From: a virus
DNA: 64,000 bases
Virus record (IMG/VR): IMGVR_UViG_3300042478_002320
Coordinates: 1 to 64,000 of that record
Strand: one strand, 5' to 3'
Made by a program: the position numbers and the translations under genes. Below are positions 38,485-50,339 of the stretch, in pieces. The notes beneath the pieces are model-generated. The model was not told where the DNA came from. It did no database searches and saw only the letters and a program-made list of their open reading frames with translations. How positions within the stretch are numbered: position 1 is the stretch's first letter; every line of letters starts with the position of its first letter.

Positions 38485-39438
38485 ATGAGTAAAATTGAAA
38501 AACTAACTCCTGAACAGGAGTCCAAATTAGAGTCTCACAGAGATAAGTGGTTGAGCAAGGTATTTAATTACGAATACTATAATAACCATGATGCTGCTAA
38601 AACAGAAGTTTCTATTAAGAAACTTTACAAATTCTGCGGGTTGTCAGAACCTGAAGTAATGCTTTTAGACAGCCCGATGGCTTGTCAAGTAAAAGTCAAT
38701 GAGTTATTAGGAAATGAAACTATGGTTTACGAACCGTTCTCATCCTACATCAACGTTGATGACATTTCTTGGCTATCCTTTTACAGCTTTTTTATGGACA
38801 ATTTTGATATCTTAGATGAGTTCAAAAAAGATTTCAACTTAATATCAGAATGTGTTGAGAACAGTTACCTTCAAATCCAAATGGATACTGTATGTTTAGT
38901 GTCTAAATATCCAAAGATAATAAACAGAAATGCCAACAAAGATTTACATTGTACAACAGGATACGCAATTGAGTTTGCAGATGGATATGGACAACACTAT
39001 GTAAACGGAAGATTTATTGAAGAGTCTGTATTCAATGAATGTATGACCTTAGAGAATGCTACGATTTTATTTCATACTCAGACTAATGAAGACATCAAAG
39101 CAGGAATTATTACAATAATCAAAGAGAATTTCGGTAACGAAGGTTTACTCAAGATGTTAGATGCTACTTTAGTTGATGAGAAGACTATTAAGCATGAAAA
39201 TGACTACGAGGAGATTGTTAGAATTTATAAGAGTAATAAATCTTATTCATTCTTACAGAATAGTAAAGGAGAGATGGATCAGCCATATGCATGGATTGAA
39301 TTCACTTGTCCGAGTACTAAATCTACTTATCTTATTGACACCTGCCCAACTTTTTCGGATGCAGTAGAATGTGCCAAATGGCATAGACCAAACAATGTAC
39401 CAAGTAGCCTTAGTTATATTTGGAGTTCAGCAAATTAA
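38485..39438 (+). CDS. DUF6745-like protein (no internal QV-repeat insert)
   Basis: KLTPEQ...W, P.V...DSP, WLSFYSFF, LHCTTGYAIEFADG...YVNG, FTCPST...Y; ATG at 38485 preferred over TTG 38464. Confidence 0.7.
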   Translation: MSKIEKLTPEQESKLESHRDKWLSKVFNYEYYNNHDAAKTEVSIKKLYKFCGLSEPEVMLLDSPMACQVKVNELLGNETMVYEPFSSYINVDDISWLSFYSFFMDNFDILDEFKKDFNLISECVENSYLQIQMDTVCLVSKYPKIINRNANKDLHCTTGYAIEFADGYGQHYVNGRFIEESVFNECMTLENATILFHTQTNEDIKAGIITIIKENFGNEGLLKMLDATLVDEKTIKHENDYEEIVRIYKSNKSYSFLQNSKGEMDQPYAWIEFTCPSTKSTYLIDTCPTFSDAVECAKWHRPNNVPSSLSYIWSSAN

Positions 39439-39452
39439 AATTAAAAAAAATT

Positions 39453-39842
39453 ATGAAAAGTAAGTTAAATTTCGACAAGAAGTCCTTTCACCAAGGAGAT
39501 GTTCAATTTTTCCAATTGAATAAACTACCGAAAGGCATTAAGAAGATTGAGAAGCAATTTATTGCTGCATCGGAAAGATCAGGAAGCTTTCATGCCCTAT
39601 TCGGAAATTATGACATCTACGAATTTGAGGATGGAGGATTCGTAATCGATGCTCACGAAGAATGCATCTTGAATCATTCATTACAATCAGAGCTAAGGGG
39701 TTTAGGCGTTAGTTTAGACAAAGCTATGATTACAGCTAAAAAAGACCATAGGCACACTGTTGTCCCTCCGGGTAAATACTTCGTTGGTATTCAAACAAGG
39801 TTTGATCCTTTAGAGAATGCAAAGAAGAATGTAACTGACTAA
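39453..39842 (+). CDS. QGDV-motif His-rich partner protein of DUF6745-like gene
   Basis: HQGDV, A.SE.SG..H, LNH, H..V..PG.Y.V..Q..FDP; ATG at 39453. Confidence 0.7.
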   Translation: MKSKLNFDKKSFHQGDVQFFQLNKLPKGIKKIEKQFIAASERSGSFHALFGNYDIYEFEDGGFVIDAHEECILNHSLQSELRGLGVSLDKAMITAKKDHRHTVVPPGKYFVGIQTRFDPLENAKKNVTD

Positions 39843-39921: not shown

Positions 39922-40140
39922 ATGGAAAATATAAATGATATTCTATTATCGCATATTCATAAAGTTAGAGATAAGCTATATGTTATAATAGGCACTCCTC
40001 AATCAGATGGAAATTATTTTAATGATACCATTGAAACAGATTTAGATATAAATTCTGATAATTTTGATACTATGAGTAATCAATTATGGGGAGATGTTGG
40101 TGATAATCTTAGGAGGTCTTTTCTCAAAAATACTAAATAG
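39922..40140 (+). CDS. QV-array miniprotein (divergent)
   Basis: MENI..NQLWGDV. Confidence 0.65.
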   Translation: MENINDILLSHIHKVRDKLYVIIGTPQSDGNYFNDTIETDLDINSDNFDTMSNQLWGDVGDNLRRSFLKNTK

Positions 40141-40142
40141 TT

Positions 40143-40343
40143 ATGAAAAATTTGCGAGAGGACATTCACGAAATCTTAGTCTACACCATTTTAAAAGAAA
40201 TGTGGGAAGAATCTAATACTAAAATAGTATTCTTTAAGATAGTAGAAGTTGAATATCATATCAAAGATAAAGTATCAGATCAATTATATCATAATATAGC
40301 TCTAAACCTAAGTGATGAAATCGATAAAAGATATAATCTTTAA
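40143..40343 (+). CDS. QV-array miniprotein (divergent)
   Basis: MKNL..KVSDQLY. Confidence 0.65.
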   Translation: MKNLREDIHEILVYTILKEMWEESNTKIVFFKIVEVEYHIKDKVSDQLYHNIALNLSDEIDKRYNL

Positions 40344-40563
40344 AAAATTAAGGAGTGGTATTATAGAGAATATTGATAATTCATTGAATACAGATATTCT
40401 ATCAGGAAGTGTAAAAGTTATCGTAATCATTACACTAATGCATAAAATTAAGGATGAGATGTGGATACACTATAGTATAGAAATCCAAATTAATTCAGCA
40501 TTAAATCGTGTTTTATATCCTCAAGGAAATCTTTTTAATCAATATCTACGAAAACCTGTATGA
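40315..40563 (+). CDS. QV-array miniprotein (divergent)
   Basis: MKSI..; ATG at 40315. Confidence 0.6.
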   Translation: MKSIKDIIFKKLRSGIIENIDNSLNTDILSGSVKVIVIITLMHKIKDEMWIHYSIEIQINSALNRVLYPQGNLFNQYLRKPV

Positions 40564-40745
40564 ATAAAATAGAAGACTACAGTGATATTATATGTAAAAA
40601 ATTTACTAATCCTATGAATGAGGCTTTAGTTAGTAGAGTATCAATTAAAGCTCAATCTTTAATTAGTTTCTATACATCTAAACCTACTATGAATCAGATT
40701 TGGAGTCAACTGTTTTTTACGGTTAAGCAGAATGTAAAACTATGA
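40560..40745 (+). CDS. QV-array miniprotein
   Basis: NQIWSQL..VKQNVKL. Confidence 0.7.
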   Translation: MNKIEDYSDIICKKFTNPMNEALVSRVSIKAQSLISFYTSKPTMNQIWSQLFFTVKQNVKL

Positions 40746-40749
40746 AAAT

Positions 40750-40977
40750 ATGAAAAACATAAGTAGTAGAATTAGAATTAGATGTTATGAATCACTTCAT
40801 AGTCTTATAAAAAAAATTGATAATAATGTAAAATCAAAAGCAAAAGACAAAGTGACTGATGATGTAGAGGTAGAAATTAACTCTCAGATATGGGAAAAAT
40901 TGCTTGATGGATCTTTTCATGGAATAGCTAATGATTCCTATACTTTAAATCACAAAGTAAAAATTGACAATGACTAA
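40750..40977 (+). CDS. QV-array miniprotein
   Basis: MKNI..SQIWEKL. Confidence 0.65.
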   Translation: MKNISSRIRIRCYESLHSLIKKIDNNVKSKAKDKVTDDVEVEINSQIWEKLLDGSFHGIANDSYTLNHKVKIDND

Positions 40978-41164
40978 AATTATAAACGTTTCAAGTAAAC
41001 TAAGTGAATTTACAAATAAAGTAATTCGAGACAAAGGAACAATACCTATCCGAAACAATGTTGCTTTACGTACATATGATAGAACCTTAGTATATATGTG
41101 GGGTTATGTAAATTTCAATATGTCTGTAAGAAATAATATTAGGTGGTTTATAAACAAAGAATGA
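40970..41164 (+). CDS. QV-array miniprotein (divergent)
   Basis: ATG at 40970; YMWGYV..VRNNI. Confidence 0.6.
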   Translation: MTKIINVSSKLSEFTNKVIRDKGTIPIRNNVALRTYDRTLVYMWGYVNFNMSVRNNIRWFINKE

Positions 41165-41168
41165 AGTT

Positions 41169-41372
41169 ATGAAAAATATAGGCGCACAATTAGCAAGTCA
41201 CATAGATAGCAAAACTTATTCTTCACTTATTCATAATAAATTGAAGAATCATTCGAGTTCTATAATATGGGTACATATTTGGAATGCTATAAGGAGTCCT
41301 ATAGATAATGAAATATCATTAAGGATATGTGCAGAAATATTTCATAGAATACGAAAAGATATAGATTTATGA
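41169..41372 (+). CDS. QV-array miniprotein
   Basis: MKNI..IIWVHIWNAI. Confidence 0.65.
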   Translation: MKNIGAQLASHIDSKTYSSLIHNKLKNHSSSIIWVHIWNAIRSPIDNEISLRICAEIFHRIRKDIDL

Positions 41373-41533
41373 TAAATATAGAGCATATCCTATGGGATAA
41401 AATACTTGAACATTTCTCAGATAACATACTTAATCAAGTACATTCTGAAGTTCAGACTTATATACAGAATGAGATAGGAAATCCATTGTGGACTCAAATA
41501 GATGATAGAATAGGAATAATTATGAAGTCATGA
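41369..41533 (+). CDS. QV-array miniprotein (54 aa, not in track)
   Basis: MINIEHILWDKI..NQVHSEV..PLWTQI; ATGA overlaps both ends. Confidence 0.65.
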   Translation: MINIEHILWDKILEHFSDNILNQVHSEVQTYIQNEIGNPLWTQIDDRIGIIMKS

Positions 41534-41730
41534 AAAGCGTAAGTAACAAGATATTAGATAGATTGTCTGAGATTGAACTAACTACATTTTGGAATAAATC
41601 AGTTGAAATGACAAATTCTAAGGTATGGCATCAAGTGAGGATGAACCTAAAATCTCCTGTACAAAATGAACTAAATATTCAGCTATGGACTCAAATAGAA
41701 CGTGCAGTAAAGAGAAAAGTTAGTTTATGA
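41530..41730 (+). CDS. QV-array miniprotein
   Basis: MKSV..KVWHQV..QLWTQI. Confidence 0.7.
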   Translation: MKSVSNKILDRLSEIELTTFWNKSVEMTNSKVWHQVRMNLKSPVQNELNIQLWTQIERAVKRKVSL

Positions 41731-41912
41731 AAAATATTAGAGGTTATTTACGGATTCGTATATGGTATAAGAGGAACAACTTTAGTTCCATAGCACAAAT
41801 TAAAGTCTTGAATACAGAAGAGAATGTAATAGGTCGTATTCTATGGGATCCTATAGTAGATCAAGTAGAGAGCCGGGTAAGTAGTCCATTAGAAATAAAT
41901 ATGAAATTATGA
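41727..41912 (+). CDS. QV-array miniprotein
   Basis: MKNI..LWDPIVDQV..NMKL. Confidence 0.7.
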   Translation: MKNIRGYLRIRIWYKRNNFSSIAQIKVLNTEENVIGRILWDPIVDQVESRVSSPLEINMKL

Positions 41913-41915
41913 GTT

Positions 41916-42140
41916 ATGAATAGTGTAGATACTACAGTAATGCGTATAGTAAAAAATCAACTATTGTATAAGATACTTGATGCAGTAAAATATCGAGTAG
42001 ATTATCAAGTAAAGAATGATGTAAAAGATGAGACAGTTAATAAAATATGGGATCAGATAGATAGTACATTATATTTTGAAGTAAAGGAACAATTAGGAAA
42101 ACAAGTATACTTACATAATTCTGTAAAACAAAATATATAG
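41916..42140 (+). CDS. QV-array miniprotein
   Basis: KIWDQI..VKQNI. Confidence 0.7.
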   Translation: MNSVDTTVMRIVKNQLLYKILDAVKYRVDYQVKNDVKDETVNKIWDQIDSTLYFEVKEQLGKQVYLHNSVKQNI

Positions 42141-42142
42141 TT

Positions 42143-42328
42143 ATGAAAAATATTGAAAATGAGTTAGTAAAATTTGATCGTGATACAATGTGGTTTATAT
42201 TATATGGTAATTTACATTTTCGTATAATTAATCAAGTAACTAATCAAATTTTACATCCTATAGGAAATACTCAAAGACATATGTCTCCTGTCACAGATGT
42301 TATTAAAATGAAAATATCGTTTAAATAG
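42143..42328 (+). CDS. QV-array miniprotein
   Basis: MKNI..NQVTNQI. Confidence 0.65.
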   Translation: MKNIENELVKFDRDTMWFILYGNLHFRIINQVTNQILHPIGNTQRHMSPVTDVIKMKISFK

Positions 42329-42363
42329 CCGATACGTAACAGAACTCAAACAATCATTAAATT

Positions 42364-42573
42364 ATGAAAACTACTAACTTAATAAATATCGATACATTGA
42401 TGAGTAACCATATAATAGATAACTATAGTATGCTATTATATAAAAAATTAAAGGTATCTATGGATATGAGTTTCAAAAATCTCGATAAACTATGGAGACT
42501 CGAAGAGGAAATTGGCGCACAGCTCATAGTTCAGATACGGGATAGAGTTGTTGTAAATTTAAAAATAAAATAA
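42364..42573 (+). CDS. QV-array miniprotein (divergent)
   Basis: KLW..AQLIVQIRDRV. Confidence 0.6.
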   Translation: MKTTNLINIDTLMSNHIIDNYSMLLYKKLKVSMDMSFKNLDKLWRLEEEIGAQLIVQIRDRVVVNLKIK

Positions 42574-42575
42574 AG

Positions 42576-42806
42576 ATGAATAATGTAAGAGCTATAATAC
42601 GAGATAAGATACCTCAAAAATTTAATTTAGAAACTATAACATCTAAATTTAGCACATCGGTAACTTCTACTGTAGAAGATTTTACAATTATTCCAATATT
42701 TGGAAAATTAACTTTTAGAGTAAGTGTTACAGTAAAGACTGTATTACTCGATACTGTGGGTGGGAAAATAGTTGGGGAGCTGCTCCCAAAATTTTTTAAA
42801 GCATAA
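42576..42806 (+). CDS. QV-array miniprotein (divergent)
   Basis: MNNV.., 4-residue hydrophobic spacing. Confidence 0.55.
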   Translation: MNNVRAIIRDKIPQKFNLETITSKFSTSVTSTVEDFTIIPIFGKLTFRVSVTVKTVLLDTVGGKIVGELLPKFFKA

Positions 42807-42818
42807 AAAACTAAAACT

Positions 42819-43016
42819 ATGCATAACGTAAAAGAAACTTTTAAGTCTAAAACAAAATTCTTCTACGAAAGGTTAAGTAAAACTCTAAGACATAAAGCAT
42901 CTGTTATTACGAGATTAACTGTAAAAATAAAATTTATTGATCTCATTTCTTCACCTGTATCTAAATTAAGTTCTGATACTGCTTTAAACTTAGAAAAAAC
43001 TAATATAAAAGAATAG
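42819..43016 (+). CDS. QV-array miniprotein (divergent)
   Basis: MHNV..TNIK. Confidence 0.55.
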   Translation: MHNVKETFKSKTKFFYERLSKTLRHKASVITRLTVKIKFIDLISSPVSKLSSDTALNLEKTNIKE

Positions 43017-43020
43017 TAAT

Positions 43021-43737
43021 ATGAATTCAGATATTATTAAAATACTTCTATCTGAAGAAGAGATTAAGTATATACTATCAAAATCTATGTGTAGTATAAA
43101 TATATCTCAATATAATCCTCTGAGATATAGAAAACCTATAACTCAATTAGATAGTTTATTTAGAGGATACTTAGGAGAATATGCTTTTTTTAAATATATG
43201 CTTGAAAAGGATATTACATTCTCTAAGATTAACTATAAAAAAGATGGAGAAAAGATAGATATGGACTTGTGTTACAAAGGTCTTAATGTCGAAATAAAAA
43301 CATCTATGATTCCTGATATAGATGACTGTATGTATAAAACTATTAATACAAGAGACATAAAACTTATTAGAAGAGAGAATAGCAGTATCGAAGATTTGCA
43401 AGGAGATATTCATATACAGATATTATTTAATACAAAAAGACATGAACATGATGAATGGATTTTGAGTAAAGATTTCAATATATCAAATCATGATGTAAAC
43501 TCTTTGTATAAATTTCTAAACGCTGAAATGTATAGAGATTGCATAAATTTTGTGGGTTGGGTAGATAAGAAAACTTTAGTTCAGCATATAAACAAACTAC
43601 CTGAAGAGGATAGATGTTGGTCATTCAGGAATTCAAAACATTCTATTTTTGAAAACTCAAAAAGATATTTTTGGAATTTTAAAATAAAGGATTCCCATAA
43701 ACCCTCTCTAATCATACCCTATTTAAAAAGTTTGTAA
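43021..43737 (+). CDS. PD-(D/E)xK endonuclease-like protein inserted in array
   Basis: GYLGEYAF, D.DL...NVEIKT, FVGW. Confidence 0.6.
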   Translation: MNSDIIKILLSEEEIKYILSKSMCSINISQYNPLRYRKPITQLDSLFRGYLGEYAFFKYMLEKDITFSKINYKKDGEKIDMDLCYKGLNVEIKTSMIPDIDDCMYKTINTRDIKLIRRENSSIEDLQGDIHIQILFNTKRHEHDEWILSKDFNISNHDVNSLYKFLNAEMYRDCINFVGWVDKKTLVQHINKLPEEDRCWSFRNSKHSIFENSKRYFWNFKIKDSHKPSLIIPYLKSL

Positions 43738-43833
43738 ACATTAACATAATTTTAACAAACACCTATTGATTTGCAAGAGAAGTATTATTATCTTTGCGAT
43801 GTTAATTATTCTAAACCACATAATCACATTGCC

Positions 43834-44301
43834 ATGATTAATATCCTATCTTCAGTTTACAATCTTACTAAGACCAATAATGGTATGTTCAAATCTGAGA
43901 AACAAGCTAATTTCTTGATTTCTCAATTTAAAGCATATGATGACTTTGTAGGCTTCTCTCCAAACGGAAAACCTATATTCGTAGAATACGATGATAAGGG
44001 TATTATAAAGATGTACAAAGATTTAGCATCAAACAAAACTGATATTGTATTTGAAAGAGTCGTTGAAGGATCTCTCAACTCTGTTGAGTTGAAGACTCTT
44101 AAATGGTATAAAAGTAAGGTTAAGAAAATTCAAAAGAATTTAGATGAATCTATTGCATTCGCAGAAAAAAAAGGATTATCTAACTATTCTGAATTTGAAT
44201 TGGAGGTATATCACAGAAGTAGAGAAAGTGATAGAACTCGTATAGCCGAGCTTATGGAGTTAATCGATGGTTTAGAAAGTAAAACAAACAAATTATTATG
44301 A
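43834..44301 (+). CDS. Hypothetical protein with own host-type promoter
   Basis: ATG 43834 downstream of TATCTTTG (43789-43796). Confidence 0.6.
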   Translation: MINILSSVYNLTKTNNGMFKSEKQANFLISQFKAYDDFVGFSPNGKPIFVEYDDKGIIKMYKDLASNKTDIVFERVVEGSLNSVELKTLKWYKSKVKKIQKNLDESIAFAEKKGLSNYSEFELEVYHRSRESDRTRIAELMELIDGLESKTNKLL

Positions 44302-44459
44302 TAAAGTATAAGATTGTAGATTGGATGAGTAATCATCTGTTCATTGATAAAGTATTTGACTCCTTTGAGGAGGGGTGGGATTTCCTGTATGAGCAGTTTC
44401 CTGATGAGGATAATTTTGATGACTATTATGTGGTACCTATTGAAAATGACGTATTATGA
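44298..44459 (+). CDS. Small acidic hypothetical protein (53 aa)
   Basis: MIKYKIVDW..FDSFEEGWDFLYE; ATGA overlaps. Confidence 0.6.
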   Translation: MIKYKIVDWMSNHLFIDKVFDSFEEGWDFLYEQFPDEDNFDDYYVVPIENDVL

Positions 44460-44701
44460 AGGAAGTAGTAAATAATATAGTAAGTAGTCAAGTGGGTGAA
44501 GAAGTGTGGGATCAATTATATTACCAAGTAATCTTTCAGGTAGATGTTAAAGTATGGAATACAGTGAAGAGTCAAGTAGATAATCAAATACTTAATTTAG
44601 TAAATCCTCAAATAGGGAGGCAAGTACGCATTCGGTTACAGGATAAACTAATGGAGCAATTAGCGAATCAAGTAGAAAATAATTTAGAACAAAATATGTA
44701 G
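44456..44701 (+). CDS. QV-array miniprotein
   Basis: EVWDQLYYQV..KVWNTV. Confidence 0.75.
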   Translation: MKEVVNNIVSSQVGEEVWDQLYYQVIFQVDVKVWNTVKSQVDNQILNLVNPQIGRQVRIRLQDKLMEQLANQVENNLEQNM

Positions 44702-44704
44702 TCT

Positions 44705-44911
44705 ATGAATAACATAGGAAGTGACACAGGAAAGATAGTATGCGAACAAGTAGATACCGCAGTAAGATTTAAAATTCGTAATGGCATAGTTAATAGCCCT
44801 GTTTTCTATAAACTATGTGGTCTACTAAGTAGTAAACTGAGTATCGAATTATGGAATCAAACAACAAGTAGAGTAGTGAGTCAATTAAGGATTTCAGTAA
44901 GAAACTTATAA
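44705..44911 (+). CDS. QV-array miniprotein
   Basis: MNNI..ELWNQT. Confidence 0.7.
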   Translation: MNNIGSDTGKIVCEQVDTAVRFKIRNGIVNSPVFYKLCGLLSSKLSIELWNQTTSRVVSQLRISVRNL

Positions 44912-44915
44912 ATTT

Positions 44916-45104
44916 ATGAAGAATATAGATAAGATGGTAGGAGATGTATTATACGATCAAGTTAGAGATGAGCTGAGAGTAAACCAAAATAGTAAAGTAG
45001 ATGTTAGGTTAAGTTTTCATCTGAGTGATAAACTATGGAATGCTACAAGAGGTCAGGTAATTTTGCAATTAAACAATATGCTTAAACGGAACTTAAAATT
45101 ATGA
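44916..45104 (+). CDS. QV-array miniprotein
   Basis: LYDQV..KLWN..RNLKL. Confidence 0.7.
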   Translation: MKNIDKMVGDVLYDQVRDELRVNQNSKVDVRLSFHLSDKLWNATRGQVILQLNNMLKRNLKL

Positions 45105-45295
45105 GTAATGTAAATATGCATCAAGTAAAAGATAAAATATGGATTGAAATACATTATACATTACGTAATCAACTACGGAGAGATGTAATGAATGTAGTTA
45201 AAAGTCATACTATATGGATTTATATATTGCATCAAGTACAGGATATAGTATGGGATCAAGTAAGAGATCGTATAGGACAAAACTTTAAATTATAA
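45101..45295 (+). CDS. QV-array miniprotein
   Basis: VWDQVRDRIGQNFKL. Confidence 0.75.
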   Translation: MSNVNMHQVKDKIWIEIHYTLRNQLRRDVMNVVKSHTIWIYILHQVQDIVWDQVRDRIGQNFKL

Positions 45296-45303
45296 AGAAT
45301 ATT

Positions 45304-45501
45304 ATGGTTGACCTGAGTAAGAAAATAAATGATGCAGTAAATCATATACCTAATAAATCTTATGATATATTATTTTTTAAAATGAAAGAAGAAGTATTAG
45401 TAAATACATGGAATATACTAAGAGTTCAAACAAGAGATCAATTACGAATTAAAATGAGACTTCGGATAACTTTTGAAGTATTTAAAAACATAAAAGTATG
45501 A
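45304..45501 (+). CDS. QV-array miniprotein
   Basis: TWNI..RDQL..KNIKV. Confidence 0.65.
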   Translation: MVDLSKKINDAVNHIPNKSYDILFFKMKEEVLVNTWNILRVQTRDQLRIKMRLRITFEVFKNIKV

Positions 45502-45668
45502 GAAATATAACTGAAAGAATAAATTACAGACTAAAATATTTGGGAGATGGATTTCTTATGGATTTATGGGAATTAATATCCAATAGATCATCAGATGACG
45601 TAAGGTTTAAGGTAAGAACTAAAGTATGTAATGTATACATAGATCAAGTAAAAAAGAATATGAAATGA
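45498..45668 (+). CDS. QV-array miniprotein (56 aa, not in track)
   Basis: MRNI..DQVKKNMK. Confidence 0.65.
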   Translation: MRNITERINYRLKYLGDGFLMDLWELISNRSSDDVRFKVRTKVCNVYIDQVKKNMK

Positions 45669-45802
45669 AAGGAGTTACTATTCATATATGGAGTAGAGTA
45701 TTAGATTTACGTAATAATTTACGAAAACCTATAGAAGATGAATTAAATGATCAGCTAAGTGCTCAGGTAGGAGTTCAACTTAGAAATTCCATAGTAGAAT
45801 GA
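45665..45802 (+). CDS. QV-array miniprotein (45 aa, not in track)
   Basis: MKGV..HIWSRV..DQLSAQVGVQL. Confidence 0.65.
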   Translation: MKGVTIHIWSRVLDLRNNLRKPIEDELNDQLSAQVGVQLRNSIVE

Positions 45803-45987
45803 AGAATTTGAATATAAAAATTGATGTTAAAGTTTGGGATCGAGTATATAGTGAAATAGAAAATGAAACAAACTATAAAGTATCAGGTCAAGTATGCAAA
45901 CAAGTAGGTGACCAAATAACTTTTCCAATACTAAATCAAGTACGGTTTCAAGTACGGAATCAAGTATCACAAAACGTAGAATTATGA
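45799..45987 (+). CDS. QV-array miniprotein
   Basis: NQVRFQVRNQVSQNVEL. Confidence 0.75.
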   Translation: MKNLNIKIDVKVWDRVYSEIENETNYKVSGQVCKQVGDQITFPILNQVRFQVRNQVSQNVEL

Positions 45988-46172
45988 AAAGAGTACAAAG
46001 TATTATGAATACTGAAACTATAAGTAAATTTTGGATTATTATAGAGCTTTCAGTATGTGAACAAGCAAGTAACGAAGTAAAGGTCAGAACGAGTGGTGAA
46101 TTAATTGATCCTATAAATAATGAATTAGGCACTCAATTGTGGAGTCAAATAAAACAAAACGTAAAGTTATGA
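45984..46172 (+). CDS. QV-array miniprotein
   Basis: QLWSQIKQNVKL. Confidence 0.75.
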   Translation: MKRVQSIMNTETISKFWIIIELSVCEQASNEVKVRTSGELIDPINNELGTQLWSQIKQNVKL

Positions 46173-46360
46173 AGAGTGTAAGAAATGTAGTAAGTAGTAG
46201 AATAAGAATCAAAGTAAAAGGTAAGATATGGAGTACTATAGGCATTCAAGCAAGGGACTTAGTAGAAGCTAAAATAGGAAGTAGTGTAAGAGGACAAATA
46301 TTTGATTCATTGTATATTGATGTGCAAGAAAACATAGACTATGAATATACTAAAAAATAG
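46169..46360 (+). CDS. QV-array miniprotein
   Basis: Likely start ATG 46169 (MKSV) at ATGA junction. Confidence 0.7.
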   Translation: MKSVRNVVSSRIRIKVKGKIWSTIGIQARDLVEAKIGSSVRGQIFDSLYIDVQENIDYEYTKK

Positions 46361-46529
46361 AGTAAATACTCAAGTATGTATTCAGGTAGGGGATAACTGT
46401 AAGACACAGGCATCTCAAAAATTATGGGATCAAGTAAGTAGTCGAGTATGGGGTTGTGTAAAAAGAGAAGTGTGGGGTTGTGTAAGTAGAGAAGTACGAA
46501 TGCAGGTAAAACAAAACATAAAGTTATGA
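46341..46529 (+). CDS. QV-array miniprotein
   Basis: LWDQVSSRVW..QVKQNIKL. Confidence 0.75.
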   Translation: MNILKNRVNTQVCIQVGDNCKTQASQKLWDQVSSRVWGCVKREVWGCVSREVRMQVKQNIKL

Positions 46530-46750
46530 AGAGCGTAAGTGAAGAAGTAAGCACTAAAGTGAATGATCAGATAACTGATGTAGTAAGCATTAAAGTAAGA
46601 AATAATCTATGGGGTCAAGAGGTGATTCATGTAGGTTTTGAAATACGCAATGAAGTATGGCATCAAGTTGGAAATAAAATACACAGTCAAGTACGCATTC
46701 AGGTATGTAATAGAGTAATGGTTCAATTACAACAAAACATAAAGTTATGA
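46526..46750 (+). CDS. QV-array miniprotein
   Basis: MKSV..EVWHQV..QQNIKL. Confidence 0.75.
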   Translation: MKSVSEEVSTKVNDQITDVVSIKVRNNLWGQEVIHVGFEIRNEVWHQVGNKIHSQVRIQVCNRVMVQLQQNIKL

Positions 46751-46971
46751 ATAATATAGAAAAAAAAGTATGGGATCAAGTAAGTAATCAAGTAAGGAAT
46801 CAGGTAAGTAATCAAGTAAGTGAGCAAACAACTATTTCAATATGGAATGAAATAAATAATCAAGTAAGTGGTCAAATATGGAATCAAGTAAATAATCAAG
46901 TAAGTGAAAAAGTGATAGATCAACTATGGAATGAATTTTTAAATAGATTTAAACAAAACATAAAGTTATGA
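46747..46971 (+). CDS. QV-array miniprotein
   Basis: VWDQVSNQVRNQVSNQV..KQNIKL. Confidence 0.8.
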   Translation: MNNIEKKVWDQVSNQVRNQVSNQVSEQTTISIWNEINNQVSGQIWNQVNNQVSEKVIDQLWNEFLNRFKQNIKL

Positions 46972-47162
46972 ATAATGTTAGTTATAAGGTTGGACAGAAA
47001 CAAGGACATGAAGTACTCAGTGGAGTAGGTGGAAAAATTTGGGAAGCTGATAAAGTATCAAAATCAGTAGTAGTTAAACTATATGTTCAAATAAATCAAC
47101 AATTAGTAACTGAGATGGGAGAGAAATTTGTGAGGCAACTATTACGAAACCTAAAGTTATGA
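46968..47162 (+). CDS. QV-array miniprotein
   Basis: MNNV..RNLKL. Confidence 0.7.
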   Translation: MNNVSYKVGQKQGHEVLSGVGGKIWEADKVSKSVVVKLYVQINQQLVTEMGEKFVRQLLRNLKL

Positions 47163-47326
47163 AGAGTGTAAAAGGTGGGGTAGAAGATAAAATACAAAAA
47201 CAATTACTATACCTAATGCAAGACAGAATAGGAAATCAAGCATGGAGTCAAACGAGGCAGCATCTAAGTATTCAGGTGACGATGCAATTGAGATGGAATC
47301 GAGTAGAACAAAACATAAAGTTATGA
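47159..47326 (+). CDS. QV-array miniprotein (55 aa, not in track)
   Basis: MKSV..NQAWSQT..EQNIKL. Confidence 0.7.
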   Translation: MKSVKGGVEDKIQKQLLYLMQDRIGNQAWSQTRQHLSIQVTMQLRWNRVEQNIKL

Positions 47327-47604
47327 AGAATATACAGAAACAAGTATCATTTCCATGTGATCAAGTATGGGTTAATTTAAGAGTTCGCATTCGAAGTACG
47401 TCAGGGAATGGAATAGAAAGAAAAGTGAGTGATGTAGTAAGTCATCAAGTGGTTAATTTAGTGACTAATAGAATGGTAGATCATGTACGGTATCATGTAC
47501 GGGATCATGTACGGTATCATGTACGGTATCATGTACGGGATTATGTACGGGATCATGTACGGGATTATGTACGGGATCATGTAGCACAAAATACTAATTT
47601 ATGA
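47323..47604 (+). CDS. QV-array miniprotein with expanded 12-bp (H/Y)VR(D/Y) repeat
   Basis: Start at ATGA junction 47323; about 8 copies of (C/T)ATGTACGG(G/T)AT. Confidence 0.75.
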   Translation: MKNIQKQVSFPCDQVWVNLRVRIRSTSGNGIERKVSDVVSHQVVNLVTNRMVDHVRYHVRDHVRYHVRYHVRDYVRDHVRDYVRDHVAQNTNL

Positions 47605-47792
47605 AGAGTGTGAGGAGTCATATATGTAATCAAGTGGCTGATAAACTATGTAGTCAAACAAGTACTCAAGTAAGGTTTCATGTATCTAAAAAATTATGGG
47701 ATCAAACAAGACAGTATTTAAGTACTCAAGTGAGAATGCAAGTACGGGTTTACATACGTATGGAAATACCTATGCAGATAAAAAAAATATAA
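47601..47792 (+). CDS. QV-array miniprotein
   Basis: KLWDQT..QVRMQV; an A8 run puts the NIKL end out of frame. Confidence 0.7.
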   Translation: MKSVRSHICNQVADKLCSQTSTQVRFHVSKKLWDQTRQYLSTQVRMQVRVYIRMEIPMQIKKI

Positions 47793-47796
47793 AGTT

Positions 47797-47973
47797 ATGA
47801 AGAATGTTAGGTACGAAGTATGGAGTAGATTATGGGGTAAAGTGGTAAGTCGCTTATGGAGTGAAAAAAATGGTATGGTGTATAATCAAGTATGGAATCA
47901 AGTTGGAGAGAGTATACATGAACAATTATCAAATCAAATTTCGGAACGAGTATCACAAAACATAAAGTTATGA
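47797..47973 (+). CDS. QV-array miniprotein (58 aa, not in track)
   Basis: MKNV..NQVWNQV..SQNIKL. Confidence 0.75.
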   Translation: MKNVRYEVWSRLWGKVVSRLWSEKNGMVYNQVWNQVGESIHEQLSNQISERVSQNIKL

Positions 47974-48188
47974 AGGATATGAGAAGTAAAGTAAGGGAGC
48001 AGATAGGAATTAGAATAGTGGATATAGTAGAAGTTAAAGTGTGGAATCAAGTATGGAGTACTATAGGCAATCAAGTATGGAACCAAGTAGTGAGGCAAGT
48101 ACTGACTCAAGCAAGAAATCAATTGAAACCTCAAGTAATTAACGATGTAAAACAAAATGTAAAATTATCAAAATTAAATTCACTTTAA
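47970..48188 (+). CDS. QV-array miniprotein
   Basis: KVWNQVWSTIGNQVWNQV. Confidence 0.75.
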   Translation: MKDMRSKVREQIGIRIVDIVEVKVWNQVWSTIGNQVWNQVVRQVLTQARNQLKPQVINDVKQNVKLSKLNSL

Positions 48189-48402
48189 TGTATTTTGTAA
48201 AACCATAGTTATGAAAGACCTGTACCCTTGAGAAACTCGTATTAGATATCATAAGTTAGGTATTGAGATAAGCAGGTCATCTCCGATATAAAAGGGTATT
48301 AGAATAAGGAGATATTTTATAATAAAGTAATTAAAAAAATTTTGGGAGCAGAACTTGACATTTCCAACATAACTCAGTATATTTGCAAAAACAAAAAAAC
48401 AT

Positions 48403-48900
48403 ATGTCAAACATACCCACCTCCCCACAATCCTTAATCAGGTCATTACCTGATTCTCTAAAAGAATTACTGTTTAAGCAATGGAATGCTAAACAGAATCC
48501 AACATGGCATCCTGAAGGAAATACCTTAAAGCATATCATTGTAGTTTTGAAGAGAGCATACCACAAGTATACAGATGATCCTAATATGATTATGGCAGCA
48601 TTGTTCCATGACTTAGGTAAGATGGATACTTATGCTATAAATCCTAAAACAGGACAACCTACTGCATATGGACATGAGCATAAGTCAGCTGATTATGTTA
48701 TTCAGTATCAAGATTGGATTTTAGCTTATGATGGAACTGACATAGAAACTATACACTTTATAGTTAAGAATCATATGTTGGTGAAATATCCTAATGCAAT
48801 AATTGAATCTATGAGACTATCTAAGCGTATACCTATAGAGAATCATAAATCATTTGATAAACTAATATTCTTTTCTACGATTGATAAGGGTGGTATATAA
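48403..48900 (+). CDS. HD-domain phosphatase resembling the HD domain of multifunctional CCA enzymes
   Basis: Q.P.WHPEG.TLKH, AALFHDLGK, GHE..SA, NHM; own TATATTTG promoter 48378. Confidence 0.75.
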   Translation: MSNIPTSPQSLIRSLPDSLKELLFKQWNAKQNPTWHPEGNTLKHIIVVLKRAYHKYTDDPNMIMAALFHDLGKMDTYAINPKTGQPTAYGHEHKSADYVIQYQDWILAYDGTDIETIHFIVKNHMLVKYPNAIIESMRLSKRIPIENHKSFDKLIFFSTIDKGGI

Positions 48901-48925
48901 GTGTTAAAAACTAAAACATAAAGTT

Positions 48926-49078
48926 ATGAAGAATGTAGGCAAACAAGTATGGAAGCAATTAAGTAATCAAGTAAGGAATCAGGTAAGTAATCAAGTATGG
49001 AGTCAAGTGAGGAATCAAGTATGGGATCGAGTATGGGAGCAAGTAGAGAATCAAGTAAAACAAAATATAAAGTTATGA
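48926..49078 (+). CDS. QV-array miniprotein (50 aa, not in track)
   Basis: MKNVGKQVWKQLSNQVRNQVSNQVWSQV..QNIKL. Confidence 0.8.
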   Translation: MKNVGKQVWKQLSNQVRNQVSNQVWSQVRNQVWDRVWEQVENQVKQNIKL

Positions 49079-49275
49079 AGGATGTAAGTGAAAAAATAAG
49101 TGATAAAATAGGTGGTAAAATAAGTAGTAAAGTATGGAAAGATGTATGGAACCAAGTATCGAAGGAAGTACAGAGTCAAGTAAAAGATAAAGTACGTATT
49201 CTATTAGGGGAGCAAGTAGAGAATCAAGTATGGGATCAAATAAGTACTATAGTAAGTAATAATGTAATGTTATGA
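49075..49275 (+). CDS. QV-array miniprotein
   Basis: Likely start 49075 (MKDV); KVWKDVWNQV. Confidence 0.75.
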   Translation: MKDVSEKISDKIGGKISSKVWKDVWNQVSKEVQSQVKDKVRILLGEQVENQVWDQISTIVSNNVML

Positions 49276-49514
49276 AAAATGTAAAAGGACAAGTATGGAA
49301 TCAATTAACTGATCAAGTATATAATCAAGTACAGAATCAAGTATGGAACCAAGTAGTGAGGCAAGTATGGTATCAAGTAGAAATTCAAGTATGGGATCAA
49401 GTAAGTAATCAAGTAGATGATCAAGTAAGTGATCAAGTAGAGATTCAAGTAGATGATCAAGTATGGGCACAAATAAGTGATGAAGTACGTAACCAACTAA
49501 AACAAACATATTAA
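49272..49514 (+). CDS. QV-array miniprotein (nearly pure QVxx repeat)
   Basis: QVWNQLTDQVYNQVQNQVWNQV... Confidence 0.8.
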   Translation: MKNVKGQVWNQLTDQVYNQVQNQVWNQVVRQVWYQVEIQVWDQVSNQVDDQVSDQVEIQVDDQVWAQISDEVRNQLKQTY

Positions 49515-49515
49515 T

Positions 49516-49788
49516 ATGAAATCACTAAATAACCAAGTACGTGACCAACTATTAAATCAAATACGTGGTCAATTAAATAAACATGTATTTGATAACGTAA
49601 TTGTTCATCTACATCTTCAAATAAGTAATAAATTATGGGCACAAATAAGTGATGAGGTAAATGTTCAATTAAAACGTAATATTACTGACCAATTACGTGT
49701 TAATTTACATGAACAAATATGGAATCGAGTAAGTGGTCAAGTGATTAATCAAGTATATAATCAAGTAAAACAAAACATAAAGTTATGA
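49516..49788 (+). CDS. QV-array miniprotein
   Basis: NQVYNQVKQNIKL. Confidence 0.75.
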   Translation: MKSLNNQVRDQLLNQIRGQLNKHVFDNVIVHLHLQISNKLWAQISDEVNVQLKRNITDQLRVNLHEQIWNRVSGQVINQVYNQVKQNIKL

Positions 49789-50006
49789 AAAACGAAAACA
49801 CCGATATAAGGTCTATTGTACGCAATGACATCATAGATTGTTTATGGGAAACTTTAGGAGAACGAATGGATGCAGATGATTCAGACAAAGCTTCCTTAAC
49901 TATAGTTAACAATGAACGTATGCGTATGAGGTTTGATCAATTGAAAAATTCTATTAGTTTTCAAATTAACCTTAAAATATCTGAAAGCAAATCAAAAATT
50001 CAGTAA
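49785..50006 (+). CDS. QV-array miniprotein (divergent)
   Basis: ATGA-coupled; LWE..DQLKN..QINLKI. Confidence 0.55.
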   Translation: MKNENTDIRSIVRNDIIDCLWETLGERMDADDSDKASLTIVNNERMRMRFDQLKNSISFQINLKISESKSKIQ

Positions 50007-50024
50007 ACAACAAAACATAAAGTT

Positions 50025-50288
50025 ATGAAAAATCAAAATCAGGTAGGATCCATTTACCTAAACGGTACAGTAGACGTAGCTGTAGACATTGACAACAGTT
50101 ATATCAAAATTCATATTGTAAACAATAAAACTAAAGAACTTATTGAAGGCTGCCACTTTCACTATAGTTCAGATAAGCTGAATAGGGATCTAAAAAACGA
50201 TATAAGGAAATACCTTATCGACACAACTTCGAGTAATAGCTATGCTGATACTATTATACATAATATAGTAAATCAGCTTAAAAAATAA
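50025..50288 (+). CDS. Hypothetical protein
   Basis: 87 aa; preceded by the array junction motif. Confidence 0.6.
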   Translation: MKNQNQVGSIYLNGTVDVAVDIDNSYIKIHIVNNKTKELIEGCHFHYSSDKLNRDLKNDIRKYLIDTTSSNSYADTIIHNIVNQLKK

Positions 50289-50310
50289 TTATATCATCGG
50301 TTTTCTTAGG

Positions 50311-50339
50311 GTGGGGGAGTCAGCTTCCCCACTTTTTTT
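50311..50339 (+). terminator. Rho-independent terminator closing the array operon
   Basis: GTGGGGGAG-TC-AGCTTCCCCAC hairpin + T7. Confidence 0.8.

Follow-up and report, generated by a model that had tools for sequence, protein, structure and literature searches.

A recurrent stop/start junction in a phage array of miniprotein genes and the whole-gene rearrangements that break at it

The window examined in this study is the first 64 kb (64,000 nt) of a 78,883-bp IMG/VR virus contig (IMGVR_UViG_3300042478_002320) with an estimated completeness of 42%. The phage is uncultivated and looks like one that infects Bacteroidota. It carries an array of tiny paralogous genes along which a 16-base stop/start junction, AAAC(A/G)TAAAGTTATGA, recurs. 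An initial annotation of the window proposed that this string is conserved as DNA or RNA and not as peptide, and that it could serve as a translation-initiation or coupling signal or as a micro-homology crossover point. We think it probable that the motif is the repeat-unit boundary of the array, where the leader and coupling site of the next gene also supplies homology for recombination and undergoes concerted evolution. Three near-identical relatives provide nine events that involve whole genes, and every one has the same ~30-nt junction at its boundaries; this junction is translational and not transcriptional.

Occurrence of the junction motif

The motif belongs to the following array.

39922–50288, + strand, operon-like array of 44 small genes, comprising ~38 paralogous miniproteins and 6 non-family genes

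Members of the miniprotein family are 45–93 amino acids (aa) long. They start with M-K/N-N-V/I, end with KQN(I/V)KL, and have an interior with an xQVx periodicity of 4 residues (12 nt). Within the motif, TGA is the stop of the previous gene and ATG is the start of the next. Such ATGA overlaps make up 22/43 junctions of the window array, and most of the others have gaps of ≤4 nt. When the genes are aligned on the start codon, conservation is highest from about −15 to +12. The proximal part of the array (39.9–43 kb) is more diverged; near-identical junctions are found in the distal part.

Matches to AAACRTAAAGTTATGA with up to two mismatches were found 15 times in the window (9 exact, 3 with one mismatch and 3 with two), all on the + strand between 42131 and 50028. 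The 12 copies with at most one mismatch, given below, lie on the + strand at 46157–50028. The whole contig also has 12 matches at this threshold, every one inside the array.

46157–46172, +, exact (AAACGTAAAGTTATGA); codes for QNVKL, its stop and the next start
46514–46529, +, exact
46735–46750, +, exact
46956–46971, +, exact
47147–47162, +, one mismatch
47311–47326, +, exact
47785–47800, +, one mismatch; stop 4 nt ahead of the ATG
47958–47973, +, exact
48914–48929, +, exact, non-coding (after the HD gene)
49063–49078, +, one mismatch
49773–49788, +, exact; the ATG starts orphan gene 49785–50006
50013–50028, +, exact, non-coding; the 18-nt spacer ACAACAAAACATAAAGTT is a family 3' end

The recurrence of the string in the distal array, which the initial annotation had described, is real: 100 dinucleotide-preserving shuffles gave a mean of 0.35 ± 0.61 and a maximum of 3 matches. 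Across the 78,883-bp contig there were no matches on the reverse strand and none to a reversed control pattern. A shorter core, AAAGTTATGA, occurs 12 times, and 12/12 occurrences are within the array on the + strand. When ordinary (non-array) gene starts were counted, 0/86 carried AAGTTATGA. The motif is therefore array-specific and not a general start signal. The accompanying statement that most distal genes end in QN(I/V)KL was generous. Among the 15 family genes at 45984–49788, 8 have this C-terminus exactly and 3 have a near-variant (RNLKL, QNTNL and NNVML).

Rearrangement breakpoints in related arrays

Relatives were found by an exact-word scan of IMG/VR, followed by a DNA search in the flagged records. 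The 16-mer matched 65 viral contigs, most of them once, and we estimate that these single matches are about as many as chance gives. Among these 65, real arrays were found only in G1 (3300034101_003424), G2 (3300021165_002265) and G3 (3300042542_004340). The G1–G3 arrays are 66–84% identical to parts of the window array and likewise show ATGA stop/start overlaps on one strand, while their flanks are 97–99.6% identical among themselves. Clustering of array genes at 85% identity produced 21 (G1), 23 (G2) and 22 (G3) units, arranged as follows.

G1: 0–20
G3: 0–6, 9, 8, 21, 10, 11, [22–24], 12–17, 19, 20
G2: 2, 25, 3, 26–28, 4, 5, 29, 9, 8, 21, 10, 30, 31, 11, [32, 23, 33], 14, 19, 34

Copy number and order vary among the three by whole units, with gains, losses and swaps. 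Module-scale indels were defined from high-stringency alignment blocks and the extracted joints. The arrays differ by nine such indels of 185–681 nt, and for 9/9 both ends fall at −24 to +12 of a junction ATG. The tracts shared at the ends are 2–29 nt long, for example TCAAGTAATACGAAATATAAAGTTATGA. Positions of the joints are counted relative to the A of the junction ATG.

−24 to +3, shared tract 28 nt
−17 to +11, shared tract 29 nt
−14 to +2, shared tract 17 nt
−12 to +4, shared tract 17 nt
−5 to +11, shared tract 17 nt
−15 to +8, shared tract 24 nt
0 to +11, shared tract 12 nt
+3 to +4, shared tract 2 nt
−1 to +8, shared tract 10 nt

Assuming uniform breakpoints and modules of ~200 nt, the chance of all nine falling in this 37-nt window is ~0.185^9, or ~3e-7. 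A segment replaced between G1 (module 7) and G3 (module 9) is bounded at +3 and −24. Gene order differs from the window as well: modules 6 and 4, whose orthologues are 81% and 79% identical, run 6...4 in the window and 4...6 in G1–G3. Array variants in related contigs thus break at the motif, as the initial annotation had anticipated. The converse pattern, a motif common at ordinary genes with array breakpoints elsewhere, was looked for and not found.

More distant arrays of the same architecture are present in L087, L102, L089/L092/L094, L091/L096 and L097; the L089/L092/L094 group includes a 270-kb, 90%-complete contig. Relatives with this architecture are large phages without a cultured relative, and DNA and protein searches of isolated phages returned nothing close to the array that could serve as a cultured reference. 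L089, L092 and L094 are mutually 99.96–100% identical and so uninformative, L102 and L087 are too distant from each other for breakpoint mapping, and the L091 and L096 contigs both end inside their arrays.

Copies of the motif outside family genes

The features needed for this part of the argument are listed here.

48147–48171, +, decayed junction GTAAAACAAAATGTAAAATTATCA; G at −3 changed to A and ATG to ATC; no coupled gene next
48197–48217, +, further relic resembling a junction, GTAAAACCATAGTTATGAAAG, on the left side of the HD insert, read directly from the sequence
48355–48383, +, promoter-like site TTGACA-17-TATATT, carried with the HD insert; best match in 11 kb
48403–48900, +, HD-domain gene, non-family, inserted in the array; stop at 48898–48900
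49785–50006, +, orphan gene occupying one module slot between two junctions
50025–50288, +, orphan last gene of the operon

The motif also occurs where it is non-coding, as first noted in the initial annotation, at 48914 (after the HD gene) and at 50013 (before gene 50025). The copy at 48914–48929 sits in a 25-nt spacer. Homology of the HD cassette between the window and G2/G3 extends from approximately the start codon to 48911–48912, and AAAACATAAAGTT-ATGA begins at 48913. The right breakpoint of the insert is therefore ~13–14 nt before the next ATG, inside the −24 to +12 breakpoint zone. The HD gene is mobile: it sits within the array in the window but 2–3 kb past the array's downstream end in G2/G3, and G1 has lost it by a deletion that left a 34-nt relic. 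With its own promoter-like site, the HD gene (window 48222–48912) behaves like a moron.

The spacer ACAACAAAACATAAAGTT before gene 50025 is identical to the 3' end of family gene 46526–46750, so orphan gene 49785 fills exactly one slot. Both orphan genes gave hhalign probabilities below 1% against a 16-member family profile, and neither has a homologue in five related contigs. In the decayed junction at 48147–48171, where no coupled gene follows, AAAGTTATGA has become AAAATTATCA. Both ATG and TGA are mutated, and the upstream gene therefore extends six codons, to 48188.

Two further observations concern the ends of gene runs. In G1–G3 and L091/L096 the first array gene is preceded by ~30 nt reading ENQVKQNVKL. 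This stretch lies in a T-rich non-coding leader that is conserved despite different first modules, namely module 0 in G1/G3 and module 2 in G2. At the other end, the C-terminal pattern is present in 44/93 coupled family genes versus 1/27 run-ending genes (Fisher p=1e-5), and the single run-ending gene with the pattern proved to be coupled to a GTG start. Taken together, the non-coding copies, the leaders of the arrays and the loss at run ends link the nucleotide word to its downstream gene. In L097 (1784–2432), a DNA methyltransferase truncated at about residue 108 ends EKQNIKL before its stop, and is joined through ATGA to one lone family gene.

In L097, a second copy of the 27-nt word AAACAAAATATGGAGCAAATAAGATTA, which spans the leader and the first six codons (MEQIRL), stands before the following gene and makes a further joint at a gene start. 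G3 and G2 hold two copies of the T-rich array leader and its box TTGCTGGGAT..TCCCCGCG (L086 3880–4040 and 6271–6410; also L085). The second copy heads a sub-array whose first members are a 77-aa gene (phrog_21321) and a family module that carries an in-frame N-terminal extension of 37 aa. From G1 this entire block is missing, owing to a junction-to-junction deletion. Start-codon capture was considered for the three-gene insert in G2/G3 and was rejected, as the insert begins with the second leader copy.

Start context of the junction

Ordinary starts of this phage (n=86) are rarely preceded by a Shine-Dalgarno (SD)-like word (3/86). They carry an adenine-rich patch from −14 to −10 (up to 80% A); T stands at −1 in 66%, and A at −3 in 68% versus G in 10%. 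This context fits the SD-less starts of Flavobacterium johnsoniae, where A at −3, −6, −12 and −13 together with weak structure raises initiation (PMC6847099). The junction (..AAAACAAAACATAAAGTT-ATG) likewise has no SD-like word. Its adenines stand at −4 to −6 and −10 to −13, whereas −3 is G. The predicted minimum free energy of 50-nt windows is weaker at junctions (mean −2.2 kcal/mol) than in mid-gene (−4.6 kcal/mol; p=9e-4). Judged from these features, the junction is a plausible leader, yet one that does not appear optimised, because G stands where A is favoured. The idea that G at −3 is itself a functional signal was weakened by L102, which has A there.

Constraint and codon usage at the junction

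Orthologous junctions of G1–G3 (−20 to +12) have diverged by 2.9%, the same as gene interiors. The motif as an RNA word thus shows no added purifying selection, and on this comparison of orthologues the idea that the junction is under such selection was rejected. Only the ATGA changes more slowly (1 change in 164 sites). Rare codons have become fixed at the junction, and they vary with the lineage: the window has AAC-ATA-AAG, G1–G3 have AAT-GTA/ATA-AAG and L102 has AAC-ATA-AAA. G at −3 is therefore not universal. In the window, AAC is used at 12/18 junction Asn codons versus 15% in gene bodies (p=7e-6) and AAG at 10/20 junction Lys codons versus 17% in gene bodies (p=2e-3).

Despite these different codons, the lineages all retain xQN(I/V)KL as a peptide pattern. 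The claim that the string is conserved as DNA or RNA and not as peptide therefore holds in part. The non-coding and foreign contexts favour it, whereas the peptide outlasts codon change and the junctions evolve like interiors. Junctions that are alike inside one genome but diverge from genome to genome look like the signature of concerted evolution. Concerted evolution requires junction-centred recombination of the kind seen at the nine indels.

Proposed role of the junction

In the explanation that we favour, the motif both encodes the end of one paralog (KQNIKL) and carries the start codon of the next. It is the only leader of the next cistron: A-rich, weakly structured, SD-less and with a 4-nt ATGA overlap. 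A ribosome terminating at UGA could restart at the overlapping AUG, aided by the A-rich unstructured leader. The motif is array-specific, A-rich, and precedes genes whatever lies upstream, which supports the initiation or coupling role that had been suggested for it. Since the motif is the one stretch that all paralogs share in register, unequal or short-homology recombination would resolve there. Phage or host recombination on 10–30-nt homologies might act by unequal crossing-over, single-strand annealing or replication slippage. The crossover role, the second of the two suggested, is likewise supported, in that the module-scale rearrangements of G1–G3 break in the motif.

Whole genes could in this way be added, lost, swapped or replaced, with each survivor keeping a start site, and selection would retain those products in which every gene still has one. 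The same recombination would homogenise junctions within one genome. Non-coding copies would be junctions left behind when foreign DNA (the HD cassette, orphan gene 49785) replaced the body of a module. What we infer is that ribosomes restart, by which pathway the modules recombine and in which direction each event ran. A dedicated recombinase, recombination signal or binding protein is not needed; the joints vary in position and length. The nucleotide identity of the junctions is better explained by concerted evolution of a leader and boundary than by a strongly selected signal.

Several points weigh against this explanation. The orthologous junctions, as noted, are no better conserved than gene interiors, and the motif has G at −3 while ordinary phage genes and F. 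johnsoniae favour A. Selection against disrupted genes alone could enrich breakpoints at gene boundaries, so the positions of the breakpoints by themselves are no proof of a mechanistic hotspot. Gene interiors hold 12-nt CAAGTA-type repeats, which also offer short homology. Indels do occur inside genes, although they are only small in-frame ones of 9 and 15 nt. Finally, the relatives are all metagenome contigs, in which mis-assembly within repeats is possible.

We also raise, tentatively, a stronger version, in which the junction is itself selected as a dual "socket", a leader-plus-restart signal doubling as a recombination linker in a plug-and-play rack of miniproteins. If so, modules, the HD cassette and orphans 49785 and 50025 would be captured, duplicated and discarded fast while always being translated. 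The array would then be an accordion-like, fast-evolving locus of Bacteroidota jumbo phages that probably takes part in a host–phage arms race.

Alternative explanations

Common ancestry alone is an unlikely explanation. Under it the motif would be the best-conserved end of recent paralogs, with no role of its own, and the non-coding copies would be inert leftovers. The retention of the C-terminal peptide with different codons, orthologous junctions without extra constraint and a lineage-specific G at −3 would all be expected. However, nucleotide identity between paralog bodies in the window has a median of 53% and a maximum of 67%, yet the 16-mer is identical in 9 copies. Leftovers should decay, but the two non-coding copies are exact and it is the junction without a downstream gene that has decayed. 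The missing tail of run-ending genes and the location of all nine indel breakpoints at the junction also argue against ancestry alone.

A dedicated selected element, such as the site of a RegA-type translational repressor that would control every cistron together or of a site-specific recombinase that would shuffle cassettes, is very unlikely. In its favour the window motif holds a 5+5 palindrome (CATAA-AG-TTATG), its G at −3 is unlike the usual start context of the phage, and the word is identical in 9 copies. The palindrome, however, is not kept in G1–G3 (GTAAAGTTATG) or elsewhere, and the breakpoint tracts vary in length, as would be expected of homology-driven and not of site-specific events. 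A search for RegA-family proteins in the contig and in the 90%-complete relative, run without a positive control, gave no match, and the junction matched nothing in Rfam.

Programmed −1 frameshifting is very unlikely. Here a lysine tRNA would slip on A-AAG, a classic slippery tetranucleotide in E. coli, right ahead of the stop and fuse modules (..NIK-VMKNV..) into a protein ladder. In its favour each downstream gene lies in the −1 frame of the gene before it, the penultimate codon is enriched for AAG, and G2/G3 contain a natural in-frame fusion of a foreign N-terminus with a module. The −1 phase, however, is a trivial consequence of the ATGA overlap. About half of the G1–G3 junctions read G-AAG or T-AGG and are not slippery, and downstream there is no stimulatory structure, the region being the least structured part of the mRNA.

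The last alternative, that the small open reading frames are not genes but repetitive non-coding DNA (iterons or a satellite) of which the motif is a part, is highly improbable: the 12-nt periodicity of the interior, open frames on both strands, the lack of a Pfam or PHROG family and the inverted recurrence of a 12-nt repeat word in non-coding DNA of relatives are outweighed by the strict stop/start phasing, a strong purine skew on one strand, N- and C-terminal peptide patterns conserved in five lineages, and substitutions between orthologous modules that favour codon position 3 (79, versus 61 at position 1 and 40 at position 2; p=0.002) with 40% of codon differences synonymous, so that the frames behave as genes.

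Relation to known systems

It has long been asked whether phage mosaicism arises through short conserved border linkers or only through random illegitimate joints on which selection then acts. There are few clear cases of linkers, and the promoter-early/stem-loop (PeSL) elements of T4-type phages are the main one. Susskind and Botstein reportedly proposed a linker model of modular phage evolution, with crossovers at short conserved sequences on module borders. The junction resembles such linkers in being a short conserved border sequence that serves as a crossover point. It differs in that their exchange is between different phages, whereas the junction acts mainly within one paralog array. 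It is a form of linker-mediated modular shuffling.

In T4-type phages, PeSL repeats mediate the modular shuffling of cassettes (PMC2839356, PMC4122927). Like the junction, PeSLs are short repeats between small, fast-evolving genes, they supply an expression signal for the adjoining gene, and in close relatives the boundaries of indels and replacements lie at the repeats. Unlike it, PeSLs are transcriptional (promoter plus terminator), ~50–100 nt long, and located between independent genes. The junction is translational, 16–30 nt long, half coding and within one operon, and it mainly carries members of one paralog family. As it has neither promoter nor terminator it is not a PeSL, although it works similarly at the translational level, and PeSL is functionally its nearest known system. 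Integrons and other site-specific cassettes have conserved inverted repeats and a fixed breakpoint. At the junction, in contrast, the palindrome is not kept and joints range from −24 to +12 with tracts of 2–29 nt, although no search for an integrase was made.

Tandem paralog arrays that change by unequal crossing-over and gene conversion are known from the "gene accordions" of poxviruses. As in tandem arrays under concerted evolution, copy number and order here vary in near-identical genomes, breakpoints lie in shared homology, and synonymous sites are homogenised lineage by lineage. On these tests the array appears to be one that evolves by unequal recombination and concerted evolution. It differs, unusually, from tandem paralog arrays in that the homology is a ~30-nt boundary and not the gene body, that intact genes are exchanged, and that unrelated genes are taken into slots.

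Reinitiation at ATGA in model organisms (E. coli, Haloferax) leans on an SD site, and none is found at the junction. Features shared with ATGA coupling and the starts of Bacteroidia are the 4-nt overlap, the lack of an SD site, weak predicted folding and adenines at −6 and at −10 to −13; Bacteroidia, whose starts have an A patch at −14 to −11, however favour A at −3, where the junction has G (PMC6847099). As a small natural system, the array lends itself to measurements of linker-mediated shuffling and to the study of SD-less restart at ATGA overlaps. It is also flagged as hypervariable, and is thus probably a host-interaction locus in an uncultivated group of large phages.

Other features of the array

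The six non-family genes of the array are those at 43021, 43834 and 44298, the HD gene and the two orphans. The miniprotein family matched no Pfam or PHROG family; DUF4816/Trigger_C was rejected as a weak match below the cut-off. No promoter- or terminator-like sites coincide with junctions, and the operon is closed by the only strong terminator-like site of the array region.

50308–50335, +, intrinsic-terminator-like hairpin with T-run

In the module at 46169–46360 (module 6 in relatives) the junction is one base short, AGAC-TATGA versus AAAGTTATGA, and the frame therefore extends 20 nt into the next gene. The short junction (window 46341–46360; module 6 of L084/L086) is common to the window and G1–G3 and is therefore old.

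Gene 47323–47604 contains a 12-nt tandem repeat, (G/T)ATCATGTACGG, that codes for (D/Y)HVR repeats (window 47470–47590). Its reverse complement, CATGATACCGTA, occurs in 4–5 copies in the non-coding leader upstream of the G1–G3 arrays (L086 3745–3790; L085 reverse strand, ~2570–2600 of the reoriented array copy). The same DNA word is therefore coding in one phage and non-coding and inverted in others, and may be a protein-binding repeat.

When metagenomes were scanned with a 20-mer, 19 single matches resulted; we attribute these to chance. In an unrelated viral contig (L056 3337–3596) the exact 16-mer stands before two paralogous genes, both starting MKNCKMN. We judged this pair to be one chance match that was later duplicated with the 5' end of the gene.

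A pair of genes encoding proteins of 317 aa, with a weak DUF6745 match (E=1e-3, below the cut-off), and 129 aa accompanies the array. The pair is directly upstream of the array in the window (38485–39842) and in L102, and directly downstream of it in G1–G3. It is linked to the array in all lineages, in either order.

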